DNA from: a virus
Taxonomy: Duplodnaviria; Heunggongvirae; Uroviricota; Caudoviricetes
IMG/VR virus record: IMGVR_UViG_2695420596_000001
Span: 1 to 13,605 of that record
Length of the DNA: 13,605 nt
Strand: one strand, 5' to 3'
Of this stretch, positions 1 through 13,605 are shown piece after piece. The first letter of the stretch is position 1, and each line of letters starts with the position of its first letter. A program made the position numbers and the translations under genes. The notes beneath the pieces are model-generated. The model did not search any database. It saw only the letters and a list, made by a program, of their open reading frames with translations, and was not told the DNA's origin.

Positions 1-221
1 ATTACGGTAACGACTGGCAGACGCTGGAGCTGGTGTTCACCGCCGGCAGTGCCACGGTTACTCCGAAACTGAATGGAGTGGCTGGCCCGGCATTCCAGGT
101 TATAAAAGACAGTCTGACACTGGGACTGAATGCGCTGACGCTGACGGATGTTACAAAAAATGCAGCGTATGGCGTTGAGATAGAAAGTCTGGTGCTGGAG
201 ATAAATGCACCGGCAGCATAA
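1..221 (+). CDS. 3' end of an upstream gene, 5'-truncated by the window edge; product unknown
   Basis: Frame 3 is open from the window edge to TAA at 219-221 (tail ...YGNDWQTLELVFTAGSATVTPKLNGVAGPAFQVIKDSLTLGLNALTLTDVTKNAAYGVEIESLVLEINAPAA). It is Cys-free and beta-strand-like. No family recognised; it does not resemble the C-terminus of lambda Q as I recall it. Confidence 0.4.
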   Translation, partial: YGNDWQTLELVFTAGSATVTPKLNGVAGPAFQVIKDSLTLGLNALTLTDVTKNAAYGVEIESLVLEINAPAA

Positions 222-222
222 T

Positions 223-263
223 AAAAAAAGAGCCAGCGACTGACCTGAAAGAAGACGCTGGCT
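223..263 (-). terminator. Hairpin with adjacent A7 tract (U7 on the minus strand): candidate minus-strand intrinsic terminator, copy 1
   Basis: Perfect 8 bp inverted repeat AGCCAGCG (231-238) / CGCTGGCT (256-263) with a 17 nt loop, preceded on + by AAAAAAA (223-229). It has terminator geometry only when read on the minus strand. Confidence 0.3.
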
Positions 264-370
264 AAAAGGCCTTATATGTTTGTAGAGACTTATTTTTCAC
301 AGACAGCAATGATGCCTGTCAATATATTATCAATATGCGGATTGTTTCAGTTACAGATGCTTTATTAAGG

Positions 371-413
371 AAAAAAACAGCCAGCACTGACTTTCGGTGG
401 AGAGGTGCTGGCT
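371..413 (-). terminator. Hairpin with adjacent A7 tract: candidate minus-strand intrinsic terminator, copy 2 (paralogous to 223-263)
   Basis: Inverted repeat CAGCCAGCAC (378-387) / GTGCTGGCT (405-413) with a 17 nt loop, preceded by AAAAAAA (371-377). Shares the GCCAGC(G)ACTGAC core with copy 1. Confidence 0.3.
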
Positions 414-483
414 CAGAAGGATAGTTGGATTTCACATGATACTTATGCCTGGCGGTATATTTTCTGACAGACAGTGACGGGTG

Positions 484-511
484 TTGTCAAGATATTGTGT
501 CATTTATAACC
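484..511 (+). promoter_or_regulatory. Candidate late promoter (pR'-like)
   Basis: TTGTCA (484-489) and TATAAC (505-510) with a 15 bp spacer, about 80 bp upstream of a strong terminator and about 160 bp upstream of the holin start. This is the position of pR'/qut in lambdoid late regions. Hexamers were picked by eye and the spacer is short. Confidence 0.25.
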
Positions 512-588
512 TGAATCAGGGGAGGCCGGAATGTTATCTGGCATTTTTAGCAGAGCCTGAATGCCATAATCACGGCTCCCGGAGTTGG

Positions 589-628
589 CCGTCAGTGGGT
601 GACACTGGCGGCTTTTTTGTTTTTCTTT
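589..628 (+). terminator. Rho-independent terminator (tR'-like) upstream of the holin
   Basis: 10 bp stem GCCGTCAGTG / CACTGGCGGC (one G-U pair), 5 nt loop GGTGA, followed by TTTTTTGTTTTTC. Confidence 0.55.
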
Positions 629-668
629 ACTTTCATTTTCTGTCGGCGGTGACGGAGACATACATCAG

Positions 669-875
669 ATGGAAAAAATCACAACAGGTGTGTCATACAC
701 CACGTCAGCGGTGGGGACGGGATACTGGTTACTGCAGCTGCTGGACAAAGTCTCTCCGTCCCAGTGGGTGGCAATAGGTGTGCTGGGAAGTCTGCTGTTT
801 GGCCTGCTGACGTATCTGACTAACCTGTATTTCAAAATCAGAGAGGACCGTCGTAAGGTGGCGCGGGGAGAGTAG
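669..875 (+). CDS. S: Class II holin (pinholin), phage 21 S-like, 68 aa
   Basis: Translation [68 protein letters not shown] closely parallels the S21 pinholin as I recall it (two TM helices, C-terminal ...[17 protein letters not shown]). SD-like GGAGAC lies 9 nt upstream of the ATG. Confidence 0.85.
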
Positions 876-1130
876 TCGATGAATAAACAATACGAACTGG
901 TTGTAAAATGAATATTTCTAACTGAAAAAACGTTCCATGAGGTAAGAAAAGGTCACAGGCAATCAATAACAGGACGTGATGAAAGACCCTTGCATTTGTG
1001 CGCTTTCTCTTTAGATAGCAGCAGATACTGAAAATCTGAGTTGTCGGGGAGTCAGGGATACAGCTGTGCAAGAGTTGGTCATTGTGATTCCATTGAAATC
1101 CTGTATGCCATGAAGGGCAGGATTTTATGG

Positions 1131-1445
1131 CTACCTGAGCTTTGGTGATAGTAAGTTGAAAATTCGCATTTTTTGCTGACATGCGTAACGAGAATCCCAT
1201 AAGCAGGGAGGACTTAATTCTTCATTAACCCATGCGTTGATATTATGTTTCAGCCGTTGAAGCATCAGCGGTGTTAATGTTGTGGTAATAATATCCAGCG
1301 TTTTATGTGAGATCTTACCGTAAGGGTCTGCAAGAATGCTGCTTGTTGCTTCGTTATTATCTGCCATCAGAAGAAGTAACTCTGATTTAACGTTTTCTGT
1401 CATTAGTTGTAAAAATCTTCTGCGCAAACTTTCTTTACTGTTCAT
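1131..1445 (-). CDS. Hypothetical protein (104 aa), opposite-strand cargo ORF inserted between holin and endolysin
   Basis: Intact minus-strand ORF (MNSKESLRRRFLQLMTENVKSELLLLMADNNEATSS...) in a visibly AT-rich ~690 bp segment that interrupts the otherwise contiguous S-R arrangement. A TATAAT-like hexamer sits upstream on the minus strand (around 1511-1518). The composition is helix-rich and protein-like; no family recognised. Confidence 0.4.
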   Translation of the reverse strand: MNSKESLRRRFLQLMTENVKSELLLLMADNNEATSSILADPYGKISHKTLDIITTTLTPLMLQRLKHNINAWVNEELSPPCLWDSRYACQQKMRIFNLLSPKLR

Positions 1446-1562
1446 TTATATGGCTTCATTTGTTGTAATCTGCTGCGTCTCAAGGGATATGTTTATGAGA
1501 GCGACCATGAGTGTTGGATTATATACCTAACATATCAAGGGATTAGAAATCGATAAATCCCC

Positions 1563-2096
1563 ATGCACGAAAAAATAAAATACGGCCTGTCGGCTGCCGT
1601 TCTGGCGCTGATTGGTGCAGGTGCTTCTGCGCCTGAAATCCTCGACCAGTTTCTGGATGAAAAGGAAGGTAACCACACCACGGCATACCGTGATGGTGCG
1701 GGGATCTGGACCATCTGCCGTGGTGCCATTCTGGTGGATGGTAAGCCTGTTATTCCTGGCATGAAGCTGTCAAAGGAAAAATGCGACCGGGTTAATGCCA
1801 TCGAACGTGACAAGGCGCTGGCATGGGTGGAGAAAAACATCCGGGTGCCGCTGACCGAACCCCAGAAAGCGGGGATCGCGTCATTCTGTCCGTACAACAT
1901 TGGCCCCGGTAAGTGCTTCCCGTCGACGTTTTATAAACGAATTAATGCAGGCGATCGAAAAGGTGCCTGTGAGGCGATTCGCTGGTGGATTAAGGACGGT
2001 GGCAGAGACTGCCGTATCCGTTCAAATAATTGCTACGGTCAGGTCTCACGGCGTGACCAGGAGAGCGCGCTGGCGTGCTGGGACATCGACAGATAG
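1563..2096 (+). CDS. R: Phage endolysin (lysozyme family, SAR-type N-terminus), 177 aa
   Basis: N-terminal weakly hydrophobic Gly/Ala-rich segment (KYGLSAAVLALIGAGASAP) followed by a lysozyme-like domain. It resembles the R21/RrrQ-type prophage endolysins of E. coli as recalled. A SAR endolysin is the expected partner of a pinholin. Confidence 0.88.
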   Translation: MHEKIKYGLSAAVLALIGAGASAPEILDQFLDEKEGNHTTAYRDGAGIWTICRGAILVDGKPVIPGMKLSKEKCDRVNAIERDKALAWVEKNIRVPLTEPQKAGIASFCPYNIGPGKCFPSTFYKRINAGDRKGACEAIRWWIKDGGRDCRIRSNNCYGQVSRRDQESALACWDIDR

Positions 2097-2185
2097 CAGA
2101 ATATTTTCCTGAAAAATGACGTTGGCCAACGCGGGTGGATAACACGAAATCCTGAAAACTGGTAAAACCTAAGTGAATAAAAGTA

Positions 2186-2226
2186 AAAACCCCGTTTGTT
2201 GGCAGCAAGCGGGGTTTTGTGTTTTC
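2186..2226. terminator. Bidirectional intrinsic terminator between endolysin and spanin genes
   Basis: Stem AAAACCCCG (2186-2194) / CGGGGTTTT (2210-2218) with loop TTTGTTGGCAGCAAG, flanked by an A-run upstream and TTTTGTGTTTT downstream. Confidence 0.55.
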
Positions 2227-2316
2227 TGACCTTGAGCAAGGCAAGGGAGAAATTATGGGTAGGGAGGTACTTTCCCTGTGAGGAAGTATAAAAGATTCTT
2301 TCTGAGGTTGTCCATT

Positions 2317-2430
2317 ATGAAAGGCATTGAAGTGGAGACGCCAGCCAGTCTGGATTTAACAAGAGCGGCAGCTTTTGCCATTCGTATTGTGGCCATTGCT
2401 GTTCTGGTCTGGGCAATCCGTTGGTGGTGA
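2317..2430 (+). CDS. Small ORF (37 aa) with a C-terminal hydrophobic helix, stop codon abutting the Rz start
   Basis: ATG at 2317 with GAGG 9 nt upstream; translation MKGIEVETPASLDLTRAAAFAIRIVAIAVLVWAIRWW; its TGA (2428-2430) is followed one base later by the Rz ATG (2432). Not in the ORF track because it is under 60 aa. Confidence 0.3.
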   Translation: MKGIEVETPASLDLTRAAAFAIRIVAIAVLVWAIRWW

Positions 2431-2431
2431 T

Positions 2432-2899
2432 ATGAACCGTGTTCTGTGCGTGGTTATCATTGTCCTGCTGGTGGCCTGTGGTGCGCTTAGTCTGGGGCTG
2501 AATCATTACCGTGATCACGCCATCATCTACAAAGAGCAGCGCGATAAAAAAGCCAGTGAGCTGGAGCTGGCGAACGCGACAATTACTGATATGCAGATAC
2601 GCCAGCGTGATGTCGCTGCACTTGATGCCAGATACTCGAGGGAATTAGCCGATGCGAGAGCTGAAAATGAAACTCTGCGTGCTGATGTTGCCGCTGGTCG
2701 TAAGCGCCTGCGGATCAACGCCACCTGCTCCGGTACCGTGCGTGAAGCCACCGGCACCTCCGGCGTGGATAATGCAACCGGCCCCCGACTGGCAGACACC
2801 GCTGAACGGGATTATTTCATCCTCAGAGAACGGCTGATGGCAATGCAGAAGCAACTGGAAGGAGCACAGGAATATATCCGTACCCAGTGTATACCGTGA
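2432..2899 (+). CDS. Rz: Rz inner-membrane spanin (i-spanin), 155 aa
   Basis: Translation from ATG 2432 (MNRVLCVVIIVLLVACGALSLGLNHYRDHAIIYKEQRDK...RDVAALDARY...TAERDYFILRERL...) is collinear with lambda Rz as recalled: N-terminal TM helix then coiled-coil periplasmic domain. Confidence 0.85.
   Translation: MNRVLCVVIIVLLVACGALSLGLNHYRDHAIIYKEQRDKKASELELANATITDMQIRQRDVAALDARYSRELADARAENETLRADVAAGRKRLRINATCSGTVREATGTSGVDNATGPRLADTAERDYFILRERLMAMQKQLEGAQEYIRTQCIP
2652..2837 (+). CDS. Rz1: Rz1 outer-membrane lipoprotein spanin (o-spanin), embedded in the +1 frame of Rz
   Basis: MRELKMKLCVLMLPLVVSACGSTPPAPVPCVKPPAPPAWIMQPAPDWQTPLNGII... has a lipobox (VSAC) and a proline-rich mature region nearly collinear with lambda Rz1; it lies wholly inside Rz in another frame. 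Confidence 0.8.
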   Translation: MRELKMKLCVLMLPLVVSACGSTPPAPVPCVKPPAPPAWIMQPAPDWQTPLNGIISSSENG

Positions 2900-3234
2900 T
2901 ATTTTGTTATGAAGGTGTTACTGGTAACGTTAAGGTAATTTAACAAAGAGTCAGTTCCGGACTTTATAGTGTGCTCAGTTCATGGCCAAAAACGATTTCT
3001 GTGATAAATATTTTGAATATTATTTACAGGTAAATGGAGTGGGGCACATGGATAGAAATATTACAATAGAGAATGAAGTATATGCCCGTATTGTATGGGC
3101 AGAGAAGGCAAAAACACGGTAATTCCGTGTGTTGCCATGATACCTGATTGGCAGAATAGTTGTTTGGTTTTGAGTATATAGTCAGCGTTTTTTGTTCAGT
3201 AATTGCTCCCTCAAAAAATAATAAAACAAGGTGA

Positions 3235-3345
3235 TTATTTTTGTTTATTATTTAGTTTTTTTGTGTGTTGTTTTATTGTTTTTGCGTGGTTTGTTTTTTA
3301 TTGTTATTTCATTAAGGGAAGGTAAATTCAGGATGGCAGTCTGTA
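3235..3345 (+). promoter_or_regulatory. T-tract-rich upstream region and candidate promoter for the PerC-like gene
   Basis: Successive T-tracts (TTGTTTT-type repeats) across 3237-3306, followed by TTGTTA (3301-3306), a 16 bp spacer and TAAATT (3323-3328), then GGAGG (3353-3357) and ATG 3364. Confidence 0.3.
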
Positions 3346-3363
3346 GATAATCGGAGGTCACTT

Positions 3364-3678
3364 ATGCTACATGATCACGTGGCAGAATGTCTGGAGAAAA
3401 AAGGACTGTACCGGAGAGCAGCTGAACGATGGGCAAAAGTGATGGTACAGCTAAGTGATGACCAGAAAAGAAAAGTGGCGGCACAGAAACGAGCAGAGTG
3501 TTTGCGTAAGGCGCGCCGGACTCCGGTTTCACCGGTGAACCTGACCGAAATAAAACAAGCGGTCAACAGACTACATTCTGAGTTGGGAATGGGATTTGAA
3601 GAGCGGCGGGTATTCCGACGATATAAAGGGACAGGAGAACAGAATACGTCCGGAAACGCGCGGTCAAAAAAATGCTAA
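3364..3678 (+). CDS. PerC-family-like small transcriptional regulator (104 aa), prophage cargo gene
   Basis: N-terminus MLHDHVAECLEKKGLYRRAAERWAKVMVQ matches the pattern I associate with the PerC/Pch family (AE.LE..G..RRAA.RW..V). Good SD (GGAGG, 6 nt spacer). Family call is from memory of the motif, not a search. Confidence 0.45.
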   Translation: MLHDHVAECLEKKGLYRRAAERWAKVMVQLSDDQKRKVAAQKRAECLRKARRTPVSPVNLTEIKQAVNRLHSELGMGFEERRVFRRYKGTGEQNTSGNARSKKC

Positions 3679-3714
3679 AAAATATCTGAGAGCGTTATTG
3701 CCTGTTACCATAAG

Positions 3715-3741
3715 AAAAAGCGACTTTAGTGGTCGCTTTTT
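3715..3741. terminator. Bidirectional intrinsic terminator shared by the convergent PerC-like and RHH genes
   Basis: AAAAA-GCGAC-TTTAGTG-GTCGC-TTTTT; the stem is flanked by an A-run on one side and a T-run on the other, between the convergent stops at 3678 and 3760. Confidence 0.5.
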
Positions 3742-3759
3742 GTGTCATATATAAGTCGT

Positions 3760-3984
3760 TTAAGTAAACCTGTCTGAACAGGTGCTCTGGTCGTGTTTGT
3801 CTTTGTTGGGTACAAATTGAGCATGTTTTTCATTAATTAATCTTCTTCTGCAGGCTTCAATAACCCACGCTGAAAAATTACCTGAACCTTTCTGATCAAG
3901 AGCGATGTTAATTTGTTCAATCATTTGGTTAGGAAAGCGGATGTTGCGGGTTGTTTTTCTGCGGGTTCTGTTCTTCGTTGACAT
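3760..3984 (-). CDS. Ribbon-helix-helix (Arc/Mnt/CopG-type) DNA-binding protein, 74 aa
   Basis: MSTKNRTRRKTTRNIRFPNQMIEQINIALDQKGSGNFSAWVIEACRRRL...: an Arg-rich N-terminal arm, then a beta-strand/helix/helix pattern (IRFP..E.I..A...G.S.NFS..V.EA) typical of Arc/Mnt-like repressors. Confidence 0.6.
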   Translation of the reverse strand: MSTKNRTRRKTTRNIRFPNQMIEQINIALDQKGSGNFSAWVIEACRRRLINEKHAQFVPNKDKHDQSTCSDRFT

Positions 3985-4153
3985 GAGGTTGCCCCGTATT
4001 CAGTGTCGCTGATTTGTATTGTCTGAAGTTGTTTTTACGTTAAGTTGATGCAGATCAATTAATACGATACCTGCGTCATAATTAATTATTTGACGTGGTT
4101 TGATGGCGTAGATGCACGTTGTGACATGTAGATGATAATTATTATCATTTTGC

Positions 4154-4180
4154 GGGTCCTTTCCGGCGATCCGACAGGTT
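4154..4180 (+). other. cosQ-like element (terminase nicking/termination accessory site)
   Basis: GGGTCCTTTCCGGCGATCCGACAGGTT immediately upstream of cosN is essentially the sequence I recall preceding the lambda right cohesive end. Confidence 0.55.
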
Positions 4181-4183
4181 ACG

Positions 4184-4195
4184 GGGCGGCGACCT
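4184..4195 (+). other. cosN: 12 nt cohesive-end sequence GGGCGGCGACCT
   Basis: Exact match to the canonical lambda cohesive end, and the following ~45 nt (CGCGGGTTTTCGCTATTTATGAAAATTTTCCGG) match the lambda left end as recalled. It sits about 185 bp upstream of the terminase small subunit gene. Confidence 0.85.
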
Positions 4196-4217
4196 CGCGG
4201 GTTTTCGCTATTTATGA

Positions 4218-4335
4218 AAATTTTCCGGGATCCATGTCCGGTTTCTCTTCAAGTTAACTATATGAAAAATATAAAAACAGGTCTTCTGTGAACCGGACAT
4301 GAACAAAAAACAGACATGTAAACCGGACATGACCG
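4218..4335 (+). repeat. cosB-like terminase small-subunit binding region: three copies of AACCGGACATG (one inverted, two direct) around an A/T-rich block
   Basis: Inverted copy at about 4220-4233 (CCATGTCCGGTTTC), direct copies at 4291-4302 and 4321-4332, with an A/T-rich segment (4240-4288) between the first and second. This R3-I1-R2-R1 architecture is classic for lambdoid cosB, but the repeat sequence is not the lambda one. Confidence 0.5.
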
Positions 4336-4378
4336 GTTTTGTTGTGATTGTGAGGTGAGAGTTTTTGCGAGGTGAGGA

Positions 4379-4888
4379 GTGGCTACGCAGACTGAAGTTG
4401 CCAGGCATTTAAGTCTGACCGATCGCCAGCTTCGCAGATTGCAGAAATTGCCGGGTGCCCCGATATCGAATAAGCGAGGGCAACTGGATCTGGATGCCTG
4501 GCGCGATTTTTACATATCGTATCTGAGGAGAAGTAAAAACGATGTGCCTGATGGCGATAGCGAAGACGACTATGAGGAGAAATTGCTTATTGCCAGATGG
4601 GAACTGACAGCAGAACAGGCTGTTACACAGCAGTTAAAAAATGAGGTGTCAAAAGGAAAACTTATTGACACCGGGTTCTGTATTTTTGCCCTCAGTAAGC
4701 TGGCAATGGCGTTATCCAGTACGCTTGATTCCATCCCTTTATCCATGCAGCGACAGTTTCCTGATTTAACACCGCGCCATCTTGACCATCTGAAAACCCT
4801 TATTGCTAAGGGGGCAAATCAGTGTGCGCGGGCAGGGGATAAATTACCGGATTTACTCGATGAATATATCAGAGCAACAACTGAATAA
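4379..4888 (+). CDS. nu1: Terminase small subunit (Nu1-like), 169 aa
   Basis: GTG start with AGGTGA SD. N-terminal HTH-like segment and C-terminal region (TGFCIFALSKLAMALSSTLDSIPLSMQRQFPDLTPRHLDHL...LPDLLDEYI) are collinear with lambda Nu1 as recalled. Overlaps the large subunit gene. Confidence 0.85.
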   Translation: MATQTEVARHLSLTDRQLRRLQKLPGAPISNKRGQLDLDAWRDFYISYLRRSKNDVPDGDSEDDYEEKLLIARWELTAEQAVTQQLKNEVSKGKLIDTGFCIFALSKLAMALSSTLDSIPLSMQRQFPDLTPRHLDHLKTLIAKGANQCARAGDKLPDLLDEYIRATTE

Positions 4889-6788
4889 TATGATGGCTGC
4901 CGTTTCGGTTGCGCTGCAGCCTCTGGTCAGGGTTGTACCAATGACGGCAGTTGAATGGGCTGATCAAAATTATTATCTGCCTAAAGAATCTTCATATGGT
5001 GAGGGAGAATGGAAAACGCTGCCATTCCAGATCGCCATTATGAACTGTATGGGTAACGACCAGGTTCGCACGGTTAACCTGATTAAATCTGCCCGTGTTG
5101 GCTATACAAAGATGTTGCTGGGGGTGGTCGGGTATTTTATTGAGCATAAATCCCGAAACAGTCTGCTTTTTCAGCCCACGGATTCTGCCGCTGAAGATTT
5201 TATGAAGTCTCACGTGGAGGCGACGATTCGGAACGTGCCATGCCTGAAAGACCTTTCCCCATGGCTGGGTCGTAAACATCGTGACAATACTCTCACGCTG
5301 AAACGCTTTTCATCGGGCGTCGGTTTCTGGTGCCTGGGCGGTGCAGCCGCCAAAAACTACCGTGAAAAATCCGTGGACGTGGTCTGCTATGACGAGCTTT
5401 CCTCGTTCGAGCCGGATGTCGAAAAAGAGGGCTCGCCAACCCTGCTGGGGGATAAGCGTATTGAGGGCTCTGTATGGCCAAAATCCATTCGCGGCTCGAC
5501 GCCTAAAATCAAAGGTACCTGCCAGATCGAAAAAGCGGCCAACGAGTCGGCGCATTTCATGCGTTTCTATGTGCCCTGCCCGCACTGTGGGGAGGCGCAG
5601 TATCTGAAATTTGGCGATGAATCCACGCCTTTTGGCCTTAAATGGGAGAAGGACAGCCCCGAAAGCGTTTTCTACCTCTGTGAACATCATGGCTGCGTGA
5701 TCCATCAGTCTGAGCTTGACCAGAGTAACGGGCGCTGGATCTGTGAAAACACGGGTATGTGGACCCGTGACGGCCTGATGTTTTTCAGCGCCCGGGGGGA
5801 TGAAATTCCGCCGCCGCGCTCCATCACGTTCCATATCTGGACGGCGTACAGTCCGTTCACCACCTGGATACAGATAGTCTATGACTGGCTGGATGCACTG
5901 AAAGATCCCAACGGCCTGAAAACCTTTGTGAACACCACGCTGGGCGAGACCTGGGAAGAGGCCGTGGGCGAAAAACTCGATCACCAGGTACTGATGGATA
6001 AGGTGGTGCGTTACACGGCGGCGGTGCCTGCCCGGGTGGTTTATCTGACGGCGGGCATTGACTCGCAGCGAAACCGTTTTGAGATGTATGTCTGGGGATG
6101 GGCACAGGGAGAGGAAGCCTTTCTGGTGGATAAAATCATCATTATGGGCCGTCCCGATGAGGAAGAGACGCTGTTACGTGTGGATGCGGCGATCAACAAA
6201 AAATACTGCCATGCAGACGGAACCGAAATGACCATTTCCCGTGTCTGCTGGGACACCGGGGGGATCGATGGTGAAATTGTCTATCAGAGGTCAAAAAAAC
6301 ACGGTGTTTTCCGGGTGCTGCCGGTAAAAGGCGCATCTGTCTATGGCAAGCCGGTGATCACCATGCCGAAAACCCGCAATCAGCGGGGCGTGTATCTGTG
6401 TGAAGTGGGGACGGACACCGCAAAAGAAATTCTCTATGCCCGTATGAAAGCCGATCCCACTCCTGCGGATGAAGCCACGTCGTATGCCATCCGTTTTCCT
6501 GATGATCCGGAGATTTTTTCGCAGACAGAGGCGCAGCAACTGGTCGCGGAAGAGCTTGTGGAGAAGTGGGAAAAAGGAAAGATGCGTCTGCTGTGGGATA
6601 ACAAAAAGCGGCGTAACGAAGCGCTGGACTGCCTGGTGTATGCCTACGCGGCATTACGTGTGTCCGTGCAACGCTGGCAGCTTGATCTGGCTGTACTGGC
6701 AAAATCCCGGGAAGAAGAGACGACCCGGCCAACCCTGAAAGAACTGGCAGCGAAGCTGTCCGGAGGAGTGAATGGTTACAGTCGCTGA
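4860..6788 (+). CDS. A: Terminase large subunit (gpA-like), about 642 aa from ATG 4860
   Basis: Strong collinearity with lambda gpA (AVEWADQNYYLPKES..., KSARVGYTKMLL..., GSVWPKSIRGSTPK..., TAYSPFTTW..., WDNKKRRNEALDC...). The ORF-track start at 4803 is an upstream in-frame alternative; MNISEQQ at 4860 matches the lambda A N-terminus MNISNSQ. Confidence 0.93.
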   Translation: MNISEQQLNNMMAAVSVALQPLVRVVPMTAVEWADQNYYLPKESSYGEGEWKTLPFQIAIMNCMGNDQVRTVNLIKSARVGYTKMLLGVVGYFIEHKSRNSLLFQPTDSAAEDFMKSHVEATIRNVPCLKDLSPWLGRKHRDNTLTLKRFSSGVGFWCLGGAAAKNYREKSVDVVCYDELSSFEPDVEKEGSPTLLGDKRIEGSVWPKSIRGSTPKIKGTCQIEKAANESAHFMRFYVPCPHCGEAQYLKFGDESTPFGLKWEKDSPESVFYLCEHHGCVIHQSELDQSNGRWICENTGMWTRDGLMFFSARGDEIPPPRSITFHIWTAYSPFTTWIQIVYDWLDALKDPNGLKTFVNTTLGETWEEAVGEKLDHQVLMDKVVRYTAAVPARVVYLTAGIDSQRNRFEMYVWGWAQGEEAFLVDKIIIMGRPDEEETLLRVDAAINKKYCHADGTEMTISRVCWDTGGIDGEIVYQRSKKHGVFRVLPVKGASVYGKPVITMPKTRNQRGVYLCEVGTDTAKEILYARMKADPTPADEATSYAIRFPDDPEIFSQTEAQQLVAEELVEKWEKGKMRLLWDNKKRRNEALDCLVYAYAALRVSVQRWQLDLAVLAKSREEETTRPTLKELAAKLSGGVNGYSR

Positions 6789-6978
6789 ACTACAGGCGCT
6801 ACGTCAGGCGCGCCTTGATTTATTAACCGGTAAACGGGTGGTGTCTGTCCAGAAAGATGGTCGCAGAATTGAATATACGGCGGCTTCTCTGGATGAGCTT
6901 AACCGGGCGATCAATGATGCGGAGTCGGTACTGGGGACAACCCGACGTCGCCGTCGTCCGCTGGGAGTGAGGTTATGA
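6772..6978 (+). CDS. W: Head-stabilisation / head-tail joining protein W-like, 68 aa
   Basis: LTGKRVVSVQKDGRRIEYTAASL...RRRRRP parallels lambda gpW ([23 protein letters not shown]...QRRRGP); same length; overlaps the terminase stop and the portal start (ATGA). Confidence 0.85.
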   Translation: MVTVAELQALRQARLDLLTGKRVVSVQKDGRRIEYTAASLDELNRAINDAESVLGTTRRRRRPLGVRL

Positions 6979-8672
6979 AACGAACGCCTGTCCTGATTGA
7001 TGTGAACGGCGTTCCGCTTCGTGAGAGTCTCAGCTACAACGGGGGCGGCGCAGGATTTGGCGGGCAAATGGCGGAGTGGTTGCCACCGGCGCAGAGTGCC
7101 GATGCAGCCCTGCTGCCTGCGTTGCGTCTGGGGAATGCCCGGGCAGATGATCTGGTGCGCAATAACGGGATAGCGGCCAATGCGGTGGCCCTGCATAAGG
7201 ATCATATTGTCGGGCATATGTTTCTGATCAGCTACCGTCCGAACTGGCGCTGGCTGGGGATGCGGGAGACTGCGGCAAAAAGTTTTGTCGATGAGGTGGA
7301 GGCGGCCTGGTCGGAATACGCCGAAGGGATGTCTGGCGAGATCGACGTGGAAGAGAAACGCACGTTTACGGAATTTATTCGTGAAGGTGTGGGCGTTCAT
7401 GCGTTTAACGGCGAAATCTTTGTGCAGCCGGTCTGGGATACGGAGAGCACGCAACTGTTTCGTACGCGTTTTAAAGCCGTGAGTCCGAAACGGGTGGACA
7501 CGCCAGGACACGGTATGGGGAACCGTTTTCTGCGGGCCGGGGTGGAGGTCGATCGATATGGCCGTGCCGTTGCGTACCATATCTGTGAGGATGATTTTCC
7601 GTTCTCTGGTAGTGGACGATGGGAACGGATCCCGCGTGAACTACCCACCGGGCGTCCGGCCATGCTGCATATTTTCGAGCCGGTGGAGGACGGGCAGACC
7701 CGTGGGGCTAATCAGTTTTACAGCGTCATGGAACGGCTGAAGATGCTGGATTCCCTGCAGGCAACACAGCTTCAGTCGGCCATTGTGAAAGCCATGTATG
7801 CAGCGACGATTGAAAGTGAACTTGATACCGAAAAGGCCTTTGAATATATCGCCGGTGCGCCGCAGGGGCAGAAGGATAATCCGCTTATTAATATTCTGGA
7901 TAAGTTCTCCACCTGGTATGACACGAATAACGTGACGCTGGGCGGTGTCAAAATTCCGCACCTTTTCCCCGGTGATGATCTGAAACTGCAGACTGCGCAG
8001 GATTCAGACAATGGATTTTCGGCGCTTGAACAGGCGCTGCTGCGGTATATCGCCGCCGGTCTTGGCGTTTCCTACGAACAGTTGTCCCGGGATTACTCGA
8101 AGGTCAGTTATTCAAGTGCCCGCGCCTCCGCCAATGAGTCGTGGCGCTATTTTATGGGACGACGAAAATTTATTGCGTCCCGGCTGGCCACGCAGATGTT
8201 TTCCTGCTGGCTGGAAGAGGCACTTCTTCGGGGGATTATTCGTCCGCCACGGGCGCGTTTTGATTTTTATCAGGCGCGATCAGCCTGGTCACGGGCTGAG
8301 TGGATTGGAGCCGGAAGAATGGCCATTGACGGGCTCAAGGAAGTCCAGGAATCAGTGATGCGCATTGAGGCCGGACTGAGCACGTATGAGAAAGAGCTGG
8401 CGCTGATGGGCGAGGATTATCAGGACATTTTCCGCCAGCAGGTCAGGGAATCTGCTGAGCGACAAAAAGCCGGACTCTCACGTCCGGTGTGGATAGCGCA
8501 GGCGTATGAGCAGCAGATAGCGGAGAGTCGCAGGCCGGTACCGGGGTTTCTCTTTAGCATGGCAGAAATGTGTTTCATGCTTTTCGGGCGAAGGATATCC
8601 GACTTCTGTACGGAATGGCAAGTGGCGGTTAATTTATTCAGGGGAAGGCTGTATGGGAAAAGGTGGCGGTAA
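6975..8672 (+). CDS. B: Portal protein (gpB-like), 565 aa, with a non-homologous C-terminal ~45 aa extension
   Basis: Collinear with lambda gpB across most of its length ([11 protein letters not shown]..., [13 protein letters not shown]..., [17 protein letters not shown]..., [13 protein letters not shown]..., STYEKE...). From roughly residue 520 the sequence (...[45 protein letters not shown]) has no counterpart in lambda B and runs into the J start. Confidence 0.85.
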
Positions 8673-11600
8673 GGCACACACGCCTCGTGAGGCGAAGGAT
8701 AATCTCAAATCCACGCAGATGATGAGTGTGATTGATGCGATTGGTGAGGGACCGATAGAAGGTCCGGTGAAGGGACTGCAGAGTATTCTGGTGAACAAAA
8801 CCCCACTGACGGACACGGACGGCAATCCCGTGATACACGGTGTGACGGCGGTCTGGCGCGCCGGGGAGCAGGAGCAGACACCACCGGAAGGCTTTGAGTC
8901 CTCCGGAGCTGAAACCGGACTGGGCGTGGAAGTGACGAAGGCAAAACCGGTGACGCGCACCATTACGTCCGCGAACATTGACCGCCTGCGGGTTACCTTC
9001 GGGGTGCAGTCACTGGTGCAGACCACGTCAAAGGGCGACCGTAATCCTTCCTCTGTCCGGATTCTGATTCAGTTACAGCGTAATGGCCGCTGGGTGACGG
9101 AAAAGGACGTCACCATTAACGGCAAGACCACCTCACAGTTCCTGGCCTCGGTGATTCTGGATAATCTGCCTCCCCGGCCCTTTAACATCCGGATGGTCAG
9201 GGAGACGGCGGACAGCACCACGGACCAGCTGCAGAATAAGACGCTGTGGTCGTCATACACCGAAATCATCGATGTGAAACAGTGCTACCCGAACACGGCC
9301 ATTGTGGGGCTGCAGGTGGATGCGGAGCAGTTCGGCGGCCAGCAGATGACGGTGAACTACCATATCCGCGGTCGCATCATCCAGGTACCGTCAAACTATG
9401 ACCCGGAAAAACGCACGTACAGCGGCATCTGGGACGGCAGCCTGAAACCGGCATACAGCAACAACCCGGCCTGGTGCCTGTGGGACATGCTGACTCACCC
9501 GCGCTACGGCATGGGAAAACGTCTGGTGGCGGCGGATGTTGACAAGTGGGCGCTGTATGCCATCGGGCAGTACTGCGACCAGACGGTCCCGGATGGTTTC
9601 GGGGGCACAGAGCCGCGGATGACCTTTAATGCGTACCTGTCACAACAGCGTAAGGCGTGGGACGTTCTCAGTGATTTCTGCTCGGCGATGCGCTGTATGC
9701 CGGTATGGAACGGCCAGACGCTGACGTTCGTTCAGGACCGCCCGTCGGATGTGGTGTGGCCGTACACCAACTGCGATGTGGTGGTGGATGATAACGGCGT
9801 GGGGTTTCGCTACAGCTTCAGCGCCCTGAAGGACCGCCACACGGCGGTGGAGGTGAATTACACCGACCCGCAGAACGGCTGGCAGACCTCCACGGAACTG
9901 GTGGAAGACCCGGAAGCCATACTGCGCTACGGGCGCAACCTGCTGAAGATGGATGCGTTCGGCTGCACCAGTCGCGGTCAGGCCCACCGTGCCGGGCTGT
10001 GGGTGATAAAGACCGGACTGCTGGAAACGCAGACGGTGGATTTCACGCTCGGGTCACAGGGGCTGCGTCACACACCCGGTGACATTATTGAAATCTGTGA
10101 TAACGACTATGCCGGGACCATGACCGGCGGACGTGTCCTGTCCATCGATGCCGCCAGCCGCACCCTGACGCTGGACCGTGAGGTGACACTGCCGGAGACC
10201 GGTGCCGCCACGGTGAACCTGATTAACGGCAGCGGTAAGCCGGTGAGTGTGGACATCACCGCACACCCCGCGCCGGACCGGATACAGGTCAGCACCCTGC
10301 CTGATGGTGTGGAGACATACGGTGTATGGGGACTCTCCCTGCCGTCACTGCGCCGTCGCCTGTTCCGCTGTGTCTCCGTCCGGGAAAACACGGACGGCAC
10401 CTTTGCCATCACGGCGGTGCAGCACGTACCGGAAAAAGAAGCCATCGTGGATAACGGTGCCCGCTTTGAGCCGCAGTCAGGCACCCTGAACAGCGTCATC
10501 CCTCCGGCAGTGCAGCACCTGACGGTGGAGGTGAGCGCAGCTGACGGCCAGTATCTGGCGCAGGTGAAATGGGACACGCCGCGGGTGGTGAAGGGCGTGC
10601 GCTTCAGTCTGCGCCTGACCAGTGGTAAGGGAACGGATGCCAGACTGGTGACCACCGCCATCACTGCGGATACAGAGCATCGTTTCAGTGGTCTGCCGCT
10701 CGGGGAATACACCCTGACAGTCAGGGCAATTAACAGTTATGGCCAGCAGGGGGAACCGGCCACCACCACGTTCAGGATTAATGCACCTGCGGTACCCGCC
10801 ACGATTGAGCTGACACCGGGCTATTTTCAGATAACAGCGGTCCCGCGTCTTGCCGTTTATGACCCGACGGTACAGTTTGAGTTCTGGTTCTCGGAAAAGC
10901 GGATTGCGGATATCAGGCAGGTTGAAACCGCAGCCCGCTATCTTGGCTCGGCGCTGTACTGGATAGCTGCCAGTATCAATATCAAACCGGGCCATGATTA
11001 TTATTTTTATATCCGCAGTGTGAATACTGTTGGCAAATCGGCATTCGTGGAGGCTGTCGGTCGGGCGAGCGATGATGCGGAAGGTTACCTGGATTTTTTC
11101 AAAGGAGAAATCGGGAAAACACATCTGGCCCAGGAGCTGTGGACGCAGATTGATAACGGTCAGCTTGCGCCGGACCTGGCTGAAATCAGGACGTCCATTA
11201 CGAATGTCAGCAATGAAATCACGCAGACCGTCAATAAAAAACTGGAAAATCAGAGTGCGGCAATCCAGCAGATACAGAAAGTTCAGGTTGATACAAATAA
11301 TAACCTGAACAGCATGTGGGCCGTGAAACTGCAGCAGATGCAGGACGGACGCCTTTATATTGCGGGTATCGGTGCCGGTATTGAGAATACGCCAGCAGGA
11401 ATGCAGAGTCAGGTGCTGCTGGCGGCAGACAGGATTGCGATGATTAATCCTGCGAATGGCAACACAAAGCCGATGTTTGTTGGTCAGGGCGATCAGATAT
11501 TTATGAATGAAGTGTTCCTGAAATATCTGACGGCTCCCACCATTACCAGCGGCGGTAATCCTCCGGCATTTTCCCTGACACCGGACGGGCGGCTGACGGC

Positions 11601-12126
11601 GAAAAATGCCGATATCAGCGGTAACGTGAATGCGAACTCCGGGACGCTCAACAACGTCACGATTAACGAGAACTGTCGGGTTCTGGGAAAATTGTCCGCG
11701 AACCAGATTGAAGGCGATCTCGTTAAAACAGTGGGCAAAGCTTTCCCCCGGGATTCCCGTGCACCGGAGCGGTGGCCATCAGGAACCATTACCGTCAGGG
11801 TTTATGACGATCAGCCGTTTGACCGGCAGATTGTTATTCCGGCGGTGGCATTCAGCGGCGCTAAACATGAGAAAGAGCATACTGATATTTACTCCTCATG
11901 CCGTCTGATAGTGCGGAAAAACGGTGCTGAAATTTATAACCGTACCGCGCTGGATAATACGCTGATTTACAGTGGTGTTATTGATATGCCTGCCGGTCAC
12001 GGTCACATGACACTGGAGTTTTCGGTGTCAGCATGGCTGGTAAATAACTGGTATCCCACAGCAAGTATCAGCGATTTGCTGGTTGTGGTGATGAAGAAAG
12101 CCACTGCAGGCATCACGATTAGCTGA
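8653..12126 (+). CDS. J: Tail tip / host-specificity protein J, 1157 aa
   Basis: Collinear with lambda gpJ from the N-terminus ([22 protein letters not shown]...) through the FN3-like region and conserved block ([40 protein letters not shown]). It diverges in a central segment and in the C-terminal receptor-binding region. Confidence 0.95.
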
Positions 12127-12144
12127 ATTTTATAACCCAGATAC

Positions 12145-12172
12145 GGGCGCCAGAAATGGCGCCTTTTTTATT
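12145..12172 (+). terminator. Intrinsic terminator downstream of J
   Basis: GGCGCCA-GAAA-TGGCGCC stem-loop followed by TTTTTTATT. Confidence 0.55.
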
Positions 12173-12193
12173 GCAGAAAAGCGAGAGGTAATT

Positions 12194-12793
12194 ATGCGTA
12201 AATTATGTGCTGTTATTTTGTCCGCAGTAGTCTGGCAGGTCGCCGCTGCTACGCCAGCGAGTGCAGCAGAACATCAGTCCACGCTGAGCGCGGGGTATCT
12301 CCATGCCTCGACGAACGTTCCCGGTAGTGATGATCTGAACGGGATTAACGTGAAATACCGTTATGAGTTTACGGACGCGCTGGGGCTGATTACGTCCTTC
12401 AGTTATGCCAATGCTGAGGATGAGCAAAAAACGCGCTACAGCGATACCCGCTGGCATGAAGATTCCGTGCGTAACCGCTGGTTCAGCGTGATGGCGGGGC
12501 CGTCTGTACGCGTGAATGAATGGTTCAGCGCGTATGCGATGGTGGGTGTGGCTTACAGCCGTGTGTCGACTTTCTCCGGGGATTATCTCCGCGTAACTGA
12601 CAACAAGGGGAAAACGCACGATGTGCTGACCGGAAGTGATGACGGTCGCCACAGCAACACGTCTCTGGCGTGGGGGGCTGGCGTGCAGTTTAACCCGACC
12701 GAATCCGTGACCATTGACCTTGCTTATGAAGGTTCCGGTAGTGGCGACTGGCGAACGGATGCATTTATTGTTGGTATCGGATACCGTTTCTGA
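12194..12793 (+). CDS. lom: Lom-like outer membrane protein (Ail/Lom family beta-barrel), 199 aa
   Basis: Signal peptide (MRKLCAVILSAVVWQVAAATPASA) and C-terminal ...AYEGSGSGDWRTDAFIVGIGYRF matching lambda Lom; conserved GINVKYRYE motif; position immediately after J as in lambda. Confidence 0.9.
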   Translation: MRKLCAVILSAVVWQVAAATPASAAEHQSTLSAGYLHASTNVPGSDDLNGINVKYRYEFTDALGLITSFSYANAEDEQKTRYSDTRWHEDSVRNRWFSVMAGPSVRVNEWFSAYAMVGVAYSRVSTFSGDYLRVTDNKGKTHDVLTGSDDGRHSNTSLAWGAGVQFNPTESVTIDLAYEGSGSGDWRTDAFIVGIGYRF

Positions 12794-12896
12794 CAACAGA
12801 CGCCGATTTATCTTCTGTAAATATTGTTATGATACGCAGGTTCATCCACCTTATGGGGTGAACTGCGTTTGAGGAAACGTAAAGTTACACTGTCCT

Positions 12897-12932
12897 GAAG
12901 CCCGTGGCGTCACTGCTGCGGGCTTTTTTTTA
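12897..12932 (+). terminator. Intrinsic terminator downstream of lom
   Basis: AAGCCCG ... CGGGCTT stem followed by a T8 run. Confidence 0.5.
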
Positions 12933-12945
12933 TTGGTGGAAAAGT

Positions 12946-13605
12946 ATGACAGTAAAAATTTCTGGCGTGCTTAAAGACGGCACAGGAAAACCGGTAGAGA
13001 ACTGCACCATTCAACTGAAAGCCAGACGGACCAGCAGCACGGTGGTGGTGAACACGGTGGCCTCTGAAAATCCGGATGAAGCCGGTCGTTACAGCATGGA
13101 CGTTGAGTACGGTCAGTACAGCGTCATTCTGTTGGTGGAGGGCTTCCCGCCGTCACATGCCGGGACCATCACCGTTTATGAAGATTCTCAACCCGGTACG
13201 CTGAATGATTTTCTCGGTGCCATGTCGGAGGATGACGTCCGGCCGGAGGCACTGCGCCGTTTTGAACTGATGGTGGAAGAGGTGGCGCGTCACGCTGAGG
13301 AGGCGAAGAAGAATGCCGGAGAGGCGGAGACGTCAGCGAGGAATGCCGGCATATCAGCCAGTCAGGCAGAAGAGAGCGCTGCAAATGCTGACACTTCAGC
13401 AGGGGAGGCATCGGAGTCAGCCCGGCAGGCGGCAGAAAGTGCAGCCTCAGCAAAGCAGTCAGAGGATGCGTCCTCGTCCTCGGCTTCTGCGGCCGCTCAA
13501 AAAGCCAGTGAGTCATCACAAAGTGCAGCAGAAGCTGAATTGTCAAGAAAGACGGCAGAAAGTGCAGCCGGTAATGCAGCCAGGGATGCAACGACCGCAA
13601 CAGAA
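12946..13605 (+). CDS. stf: Side tail fibre protein Stf, N-terminal 220 codons (3'-truncated by the window edge)
   Basis: MTVKISGVLKDGTGKPVENCTIQLKARRTSSTVVVNTVASENPDEAGRYSMDVEYGQYSVILLVEGFPPSHAGTITVYEDSQPGTLNDFL... is near-identical in pattern to the lambda Stf N-terminus, followed by the Ala/Ser/Glu-rich repeat region. GGTGGA SD. The frame is open to the window end. Confidence 0.9.
   Translation, partial: MTVKISGVLKDGTGKPVENCTIQLKARRTSSTVVVNTVASENPDEAGRYSMDVEYGQYSVILLVEGFPPSHAGTITVYEDSQPGTLNDFLGAMSEDDVRPEALRRFELMVEEVARHAEEAKKNAGEAETSARNAGISASQAEESAANADTSAGEASESARQAAESAASAKQSEDASSSSASAAAQKASESSQSAAEAELSRKTAESAAGNAARDATTATE

Follow-up and report, generated by a model that had tools for sequence, protein, structure and literature searches.

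An antisense accessory gene and the stub of a late-strand gene in the holin-endolysin gap of a lambdoid, Stx-phage-like Escherichia coli prophage

The stretch of DNA analyzed here, called the window below, comprises 13,605 nucleotides of a Caudoviricetes sequence (IMG/VR record IMGVR_UViG_2695420596_000001, positions 1 to 13,605) and is the late region of a lambdoid, Shiga toxin (Stx)-phage-like Escherichia coli prophage. Its gene order runs from the 3′ end of a sialate esterase gene (nanS-p type) through a holin gene, a gap, a lysozyme gene, a second spacer, Rz/Rz1 and a PerC-family gene to the terminase genes. We are concerned with the gap, 687 bp at positions 876-1562 between the end of the holin coding sequence (875) and the start of the lysozyme coding sequence (1563), and above all with a 104-amino acid open reading frame (ORF) that lies within it on the opposite strand. 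In the following, B denotes this antisense ORF, A a late-strand gene of the phrog_1085 type, S the holin gene and R the endolysin gene, which is divergent from B. An earlier reading of the same DNA (here the sequence-only reading) had described an AT-rich stretch of about 690 bp that splits the holin from its endolysin and carries a 104-codon ORF on the opposite strand. Both observations are borne out, and the G+C content of the gap is 0.390 as against 0.531 for S, 0.545 for R and 0.547 for Rz. Coordinates are collected in Table 1.

Table 1. Features of the gap and of the two genes that bound it (window coordinates)
Feature	Position	Strand	Basis
Class II (phage 21 S-type) holin gene S, 68 aa; left boundary	669..875	+	Pfam PF04971, E 1.3e-32; annotated by PGAP as "class II holin family protein"
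Late-strand gene stub, DUF1327/YdfR type, ATG and 9 codons (MNKQYELVVK), then TGA	879..911	+	Identity to the start of the L008 protein
AT-rich spacer, no intact gene	915..1130	+	blastn: no match in the diverged loci compared
Gene B, 104 aa, phrog_1853	1131..1445	-	Profile match, homolog alignment, dN/dS, AlphaFold2 model
5′ untranslated region of B, 77 nt from the major start site	1446..1522	-	Published start site (PMC10469882)
Promoter P2, consensus TATAAT, 7 nt upstream of the minor start site 1511	1518..1523	-	Sequence and published start site
Promoter P1, extended -10 TGaTATGTT, 7 nt upstream of the major start site 1522	1529..1537	-	Sequence and published start site
R21-like lysozyme gene R (signal-anchor-release, SAR, type), 177 aa; right boundary	1563..2096	+	Pfam PF00959, E 7.7e-24; annotated "lysozyme"

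Gene B is almost certainly a real, independently transcribed gene. Its length by itself is weak evidence and only weakly unusual; when the segment is shuffled by a first-order Markov model, an ORF of at least 104 amino acids turns up in 4.4% of cases. Conservation is more telling. Among eight loci the ratio of nonsynonymous to synonymous substitution rates (dN/dS) of B is 0.13-0.38 in 25 of 28 pairwise comparisons (the unsaturated ones), and third codon positions have changed about twice as often as first or second positions. Relatives at 49-79% identity are 104-106 amino acids long, and conservation extends over the whole alignment, beginning with residue 1. By these substitution patterns B is a protein-coding gene under purifying selection. 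The sequence-only reading had named beforehand what would speak against a gene here, namely no conservation or coding signature in homologous loci, and the gene has survived that test, with its length kept even at 49% identity. The opposite view, in which B would be no gene at all and its frame would have stayed open by chance in AT-rich junk DNA of the gap, can point to the shuffles, to the lack of a Pfam or NCBIfam family and to a weak Shine-Dalgarno sequence. It is already refuted by the conservation of length and termini, by a dN/dS well below 1 and by the reproducible transcription start site described below, and the match to a PHROG family counts against it as well; we give it almost no credence.

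The family to which B belongs, which the sequence-only reading could not name, is phrog_1853 (E 3.5e-47, B residues 1-102 on profile positions 57-158 of 159). The additional N-terminal positions of that profile have no counterpart here, where a stop codon bounds the B ORF. The protein is already annotated: the Prokaryotic Genome Annotation Pipeline (PGAP) lists it as the hypothetical protein WP_000138558.1, and the original EDL933 annotation calls it "unknown protein encoded within prophage CP-933O". The PGAP entry has 90 amino acids and starts at position 1403. We favor the 104-amino acid start at 1445, judging from the alignment, because residues 1-14 are conserved and because the phage 86 clade lacks the second ATG, with isoleucine at the position of PGAP's start methionine. 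The family is small. Searches found 16 clusters among 5.8 billion proteins and, by an exhaustive profile search, 20 matches among 1.84 billion representatives; one of the 20 is marginal (E 1.9e-5) and lies inside an unrelated 1,373-amino acid repeat protein, and the others are short B-type proteins or fragments. When one genome of each species was scanned, the patterns used brought up no relative.

Transcription of B can be read from published data. Primary 5′ ends in EDL933 have been mapped by Cappable-seq in four media and two growth phases, in triplicate and with no prophage induction (Zehentner, Scherer and Neuhaus, BMC Microbiol 2023; PMC10469882). The 687-bp segment is present in EDL933 in one copy with 100% identity, and its coordinates convert as window = 1274375 - record position, a relation that we verified on the annotated R and B coordinates. 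Table S5 of that study gives for EDL933_RS06280 a minus-strand transcription start site (TSS; gTSS 1272853) at window position 1522 in 8/8 conditions, with a relative read score (RRS) of 31-72 against a cutoff of 1.5. A minor minus-strand TSS (1272864, window 1511) appears in 2/8 conditions only, stationary LB and stationary acid (PMC10469882, Table S5). The sequence-only reading had credited B with its own -10-like hexamer, by which it probably meant the TATAAT of P2; this is indeed a perfect hexamer (1523-1518), but it gives only the minor TSS, and the major one comes from the extended -10 element of P1 (1537-1529). The P1 -10 element lies 29-34 bp from the R ATG. Both promoters were missed by a simple consensus promoter scan.

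The two promoters are conserved along with the gene. Across clades, no block of the B-R spacer is better conserved than the TATGTT element (plus-strand sequence ACATA), and GGATTATATA in the P2 region is kept in most of the diverged clade-A loci and in the unrelated context of locus L014. Locus L014 has unrelated flanks and another type of lysis cassette, yet the promoter pair TGgTACATT ... TATAAT stands at an equal distance from the B ATG. Since both -10 elements accompany B into that unrelated cassette, they belong to gene B.

Weak plus-strand (late-strand) TSSs are also found inside the gap in EDL933, at window positions 915 and 1287 in 5/8 conditions each (RRS 2-4 for that at 1287) and at 1467 and 1479 in one condition each (PMC10469882). 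The site at 915 coincides with the homology breakpoint described in the next paragraph. Such starts would yield endolysin transcripts without holin in uninduced cells.

The sequence-only reading had treated the gap as a single cargo unit, and here it does not hold. As far as sequence comparison can tell, the insert is a composite in which the stub of a DUF1327/phrog_1085-type late-strand gene and a possible wreck of its remainder precede an intact antisense cassette; of the 687 bp, only 1129-1560 is conserved in diverged relatives. The stub directly follows the holin stop codon (ATG AAT AAA CAA TAC GAA CTG GTT GTA AAA TGA), and its 10 residues are identical to the start of the 263-amino acid DUF1327 protein of Stx1 phage 14040 (L008). 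Nucleotide homology with L008, phage 86 and Qin extends through the holin gene and ends at position 914. In the loci compared, blastn found no nucleotide match for 915-1123; the profile of the A C-terminal domain matches 952-1083 weakly (12.3 bits, with two in-frame stops), and the spacer is possibly the decayed remainder of a phrog_1085-type gene A. What the diverged relatives share with the window is the B ORF and its upstream spacer.

Other candidates within the gap were rejected. A 120-amino acid minus-strand ORF (838-1200) has stops in its frame in all four homologous loci, and a 64-amino acid plus-strand ORF (1336-1530) finds no support, its start codon being lost in two relatives. Both are "hypothetical proteins" in the EDL933 annotation used in the TSS study (RS06285 and RS32115, respectively), neither has a family match, and they are probably not genes. 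We also rejected an equation of B with YdfR of Qin: YdfR is a DUF1327 (PF07041) protein encoded on the same strand as the lysis genes, whereas B is on the opposite strand and has no Pfam match, and only the stub at 879-911 derives from such a gene. No Rfam family was found in the window or in a separate search of 800-2450.

In λ and phage 21, S and R are directly adjacent. The sequence-only reading had taken this arrangement as the norm, and for the present S/R lineage it is not: among 60 records sampled at even spacing, 21 E. coli loci match both genes without having this insert, and every one of them carries a YdfR-family or hypothetical gene between S and R, with S-to-R spans of 1026-1837 bp. 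Qin ydfR (L005, 3555-3866) represents the usual occupant of the slot. Nor is the insert strain-specific, a question that the same reading had raised in connection with S-R spacing. The window's version of the segment is present in 624-626 of 5,426 complete E. coli genomes, nearly always at >=99% identity, and its carriers include O157:H7, O26, O45, O103, O111, O121 and O145 strains. The collection of deposited phage genomes contains no full-length match to it.

We compared about 95 B loci. In the great majority of these B runs against the late operon and has R as its immediate divergent neighbor, and in all but remnant loci it is directly divergent from an intact lysis gene. It occurs with six holin or endolysin types; the holins include the S21 type, the 71-amino acid PF04971 type (phage 86 S) and a 90-amino acid holin, and distant members of the family accompany λ S-type (PF05106) or HP1-type holins. 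Two loci (L014/L015) have a holin_8/holin_3_7/GH108 cassette in which B stands beside a porin gene in the same orientation, and blastn homology there is confined to the B ORF. We also note a conserved hairpin (CGCCAGTG...CACTGGCG) between B and the next lysis gene in the phage 86 and Salmonella-type clades (L003, 3380-3420; L100/L102, upstream of B). It resembles the terminator at window 587-613, and in phage 86, where TTTTT comes after it on the B strand, it is terminator-like, upstream of B.

The definition of a moron goes back to Juhala et al. 2000 and Hendrix et al. 2000, and the sequence-only reading had proposed that the insert is one. We consider it likely that B is a moron. Two otherwise similar loci (L101 and L104) have the order S-A-R with an A-R gap of 36 nt and no B, and three others (L009, L007 and L003) have B inserted at this A-R junction. 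The gene brings its own promoter, which travels with it and is active in the repressed prophage, as seen from the published TSSs (8/8 uninduced conditions; PMC10469882) and the matching -10 elements in relatives. Base composition is unlike that of the neighbors: B has a G+C content of 0.384 here, where the lysis genes have 0.53-0.55, and its values stay below theirs at each of the eight B-containing loci compared (0.35-0.47 for B, 0.48-0.56 for the lysis genes). The proposal thus stands for B as a real, AT-rich gene that similar S-A-R loci lack, but not for the insert as a whole, which is composite, and no convincing terminator of its own was found. A hairpin at about 1105-1128 was rejected as a B terminator, being no better than shuffles (z -0.7).

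The closest known counterpart is orf6 of the Stx2-converting phage 86 (BAF34038.1, phrog_1853), which is of equal length, 49% identical over 104 amino acids and likewise antisense and directly divergent from R. Phage 86 differs from the window in that its late-strand orf5 (DUF1327 plus the phrog_1085 C-domain) is intact, in its holin type and in a different spacer upstream of B. The classical λ morons are bor, on the opposite strand adjoining Rz, and lom. B resembles them in being an additional late-region gene that has a promoter of its own and is transcribed while the prophage is repressed, that differs in composition from its neighbors and that is present in some relatives and absent in others. 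In contrast to Bor and Lom, which are envelope proteins with signal sequences, B is predicted to be soluble, with no signal sequence or lipobox found; it also lies between S and R and not after Rz as bor does, and no terminator was found for it. The porin morons nmpC (DLP12) and lc (PA-2) are antisense between Q and the lysis genes and encode outer-membrane porins that replace a receptor. They are similar to B as antisense accessory genes at the entrance of a lysis cassette, and B lies directly beside such a porin gene in L014/L015, but their products are outer-membrane proteins and B is a small protein predicted to be cytoplasmic. Finally, YdfR/DUF1327 genes (Qin essQ-ydfR-rrrQ) and their phrog_1085 fusions use the same holin-endolysin slot, and the window keeps the first 10 codons of such a gene; they differ from B in strand and sequence. 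YdfR has been reported to bind the catalytic half of RNase E and possibly RNA, with which it co-purifies (RNA Biology 2026; PMC13232886). This report may bear on the former role of the decayed late-strand gene in the slot.

AlphaFold2 models B with confidence as a soluble five-helix bundle (predicted local distance difference test, pLDDT, 84.7; predicted template modeling score, pTM, 0.74). The sequence has no hydrophobic stretch (maximal 19-residue Kyte-Doolittle mean 0.66, grand average of hydropathy -0.33); with neither a transmembrane segment nor an anchor, B is unlike an antiholin or another membrane regulator of lysis. Family members have isoelectric points between 5 and 9.3, and this spread speaks against a conserved basic surface for nucleic acid binding. 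A Pfam scan (E up to 0.1) and NCBIfam gave no match for B or for diverged relatives, and neither B nor four diverged relatives matched a PADLOC defense profile (E up to 1), so that B does not qualify as a known anti-phage defense protein. A profile search of PDB sequences returned only designed proteins (E 0.026 or worse), a structure search of BFVD gave nothing below E 1, and in the literature we found no functional study of B, of phage 86 orf6 or of genes between S and R.

B is often found with gene A, whose phrog_1085 C-domain carries the motifs HxH, GRCMGxLQxAAEIE and PPFK...W..PG..YLK. The 3′ end of B usually abuts or overlaps that of A, and such tail-to-tail pairs, with anything from a 33-nt overlap to a 19-nt gap, recur in E. 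coli, Salmonella and metagenome-derived contigs at identities of 33-42% for A and about 35-50% for B. The pair sits either between S and R or upstream of S, and 4/5 records in the phage collection that have the A C-domain also hold B. This recurrence, in both settings, is what would speak for B as a partner of the A protein (an antagonist, immunity-like protein or co-factor) that was orphaned in the window when A decayed. We think this quite unlikely. A is far commoner than B (207 versus about 16-20 clusters) and often lacks it, as in L101 and L104; conversely, B occurs without A in loci of the window type and in L014/L015, where it is intact and diverged (72% identity) with no A at all. The two genes are convergent and form no operon; neither the co-transcription nor the obligate co-occurrence of a toxin-antitoxin-like cassette is seen. 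The A model, too, is poor (pLDDT 65), and a structure search with it gave no informative match.

The reading that we prefer, with some reserve, is that the segment is a variable accessory slot of a lambdoid (Stx-phage-like) lysis cassette that holds the remains of a late-strand gene and an intact antisense unit, and that B is an accessory gene expressed in the lysogen and tied to the lysis cassette. The mRNA with its 77-nt leader would then be translated into a soluble 12-kDa five-helix protein acting in the lysogen's cytoplasm. From geometry, polymerase bound at P1 (roughly -55 to +20) would span window 1577-1502 and so cover the R ribosome-binding site and ATG, and in the prophage any transcription that strays along the late strand into the SAR endolysin gene could thereby be blocked by the B unit or collide with it. 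The sequence-only reading had suggested such a collision and an influence on lysis timing; the place of P1 beside the R start makes interference plausible. Once Q-antiterminated late transcription is heavy, P1 could be shut off by promoter occlusion. B may thus serve as a modulator or safeguard, both in cis, because its transcription converges with that of the late operon, and in trans, by way of a protein whose target is perhaps an A-type late protein.

In a rival account the unit works mainly at the level of RNA or transcription. The strong antisense promoter and its transcript would then silence leaky expression of the endolysin (perhaps also of the holin) in lysogens, and the ORF would be secondary. 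The placement of the P1 -10 element, with bound polymerase spanning the R start, fits this, as does the fact that B always opposes the late operon and starts beside a lysis gene, whatever the holin or endolysin type. With no terminator found downstream of the ORF, antisense transcripts could extend into the holin gene, and the weak late-strand TSSs in the slot would be there to counteract. However, purifying selection on the amino acids and an exactly kept ORF length show that the protein matters, which a role confined to RNA or to cis effects would not require, and clades B and C keep the protein while their upstream region differs from that of the window; on these grounds we judge the RNA-level account unlikely. 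In the reading that we prefer, the strong constraint on its sequence means that the protein must also act in trans.

What that protein does is a more tentative matter. A role linked to lysis is preferred because B keeps a constant position beside unrelated lysis gene types and is frequently paired with A, and a connection with lysis control is possible, though we put it forward with little confidence. Lysogenic conversion, defense or exclusion, separate from lysis, is another role that may be considered, and we hold it just as loosely. The most specific proposal would make B a prophage-state safeguard of enterobacterial lambdoid lysis cassettes, in which a constitutive promoter facing the first downstream lysis gene and a small helical protein together restrain premature endolysin or holin action; the protein might antagonize the phrog_1085/DUF1327 protein, and the whole might tune spontaneous lysis and hence the release of phage and Shiga toxin in Shiga toxin-producing E. 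coli (STEC). This is speculative and rather improbable.

Several points weigh against our preferred reading. Shared ancestry and hot spots of recombination, and not function, could be the reason why B adjoins lysis genes. The Shine-Dalgarno sequence of B is weak in this window (GAAG), and its translation is inferred. A convincing terminator 3′ of the B ORF on the minus strand, a classical moron feature, was not found. Lastly, the late-strand TSSs in the slot are weak and condition-dependent, and the idea of interference in cis comes from geometry.

B is an ordinary kind of gene; it is common, it already has an annotation, and a published TSS table already lists it. The present analysis adds the composite slot with its DUF1327 stub, the corrected start codon, the mapped promoter tied to the sequence and placed against the endolysin start, and the recurrent A-B pairing. 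The gene lies inside the lysis cassette of prophages in about one in nine complete E. coli genomes, mostly of STEC and enterohemorrhagic E. coli (EHEC) lineages, and its transcription in uninduced EHEC is substantial. Should B or its promoter affect leaky endolysin expression or the timing of lysis, it would bear on spontaneous prophage induction and on toxin and phage release.

Further features of the window lie outside the gap. The second spacer, between R and Rz (335 bp, 45% G+C), contains on the minus strand a candidate small RNA (sRNA) of about 95 nt within 2180-2314, with a predicted promoter TGGACA-18-TATACT (2314-2285) and an EDL933 TSS in 8/8 conditions (1272098, window 2277; PMC10469882). 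Its hairpin (2218-2186) is followed by TTTTTACTTTTATT on the minus strand, the predicted fold has -26.5 kcal/mol (z -2.5), and no Rfam family was found for it. On the plus strand the same hairpin (2186-2218) is strong, with -21.1 kcal/mol (z -4.4), and is followed by a T-rich tract; it resembles a bidirectional terminator set within the lysis operon. A plus-strand ORF of 37 amino acids (2317-2430; phrog_4493, E 5.5e-16; PGAP WP_000675931.1), hydrophobic in the C-terminal half of its product, stops a single base short of the Rz start and may encode a further small membrane protein of the lysis cassette. Upstream of S, prophage sRNAs PasA, PasC and PasD1 have been described in the sialate esterase-holin spacer (Zhu, Shabalina and Storz, bioRxiv preprint, 2026). 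In the window a strong terminator (587-613, z -5.5) lies in this spacer (222-668), as do two hairpin-like repeats that resemble each other, one near 225-270 and one near 372-420.
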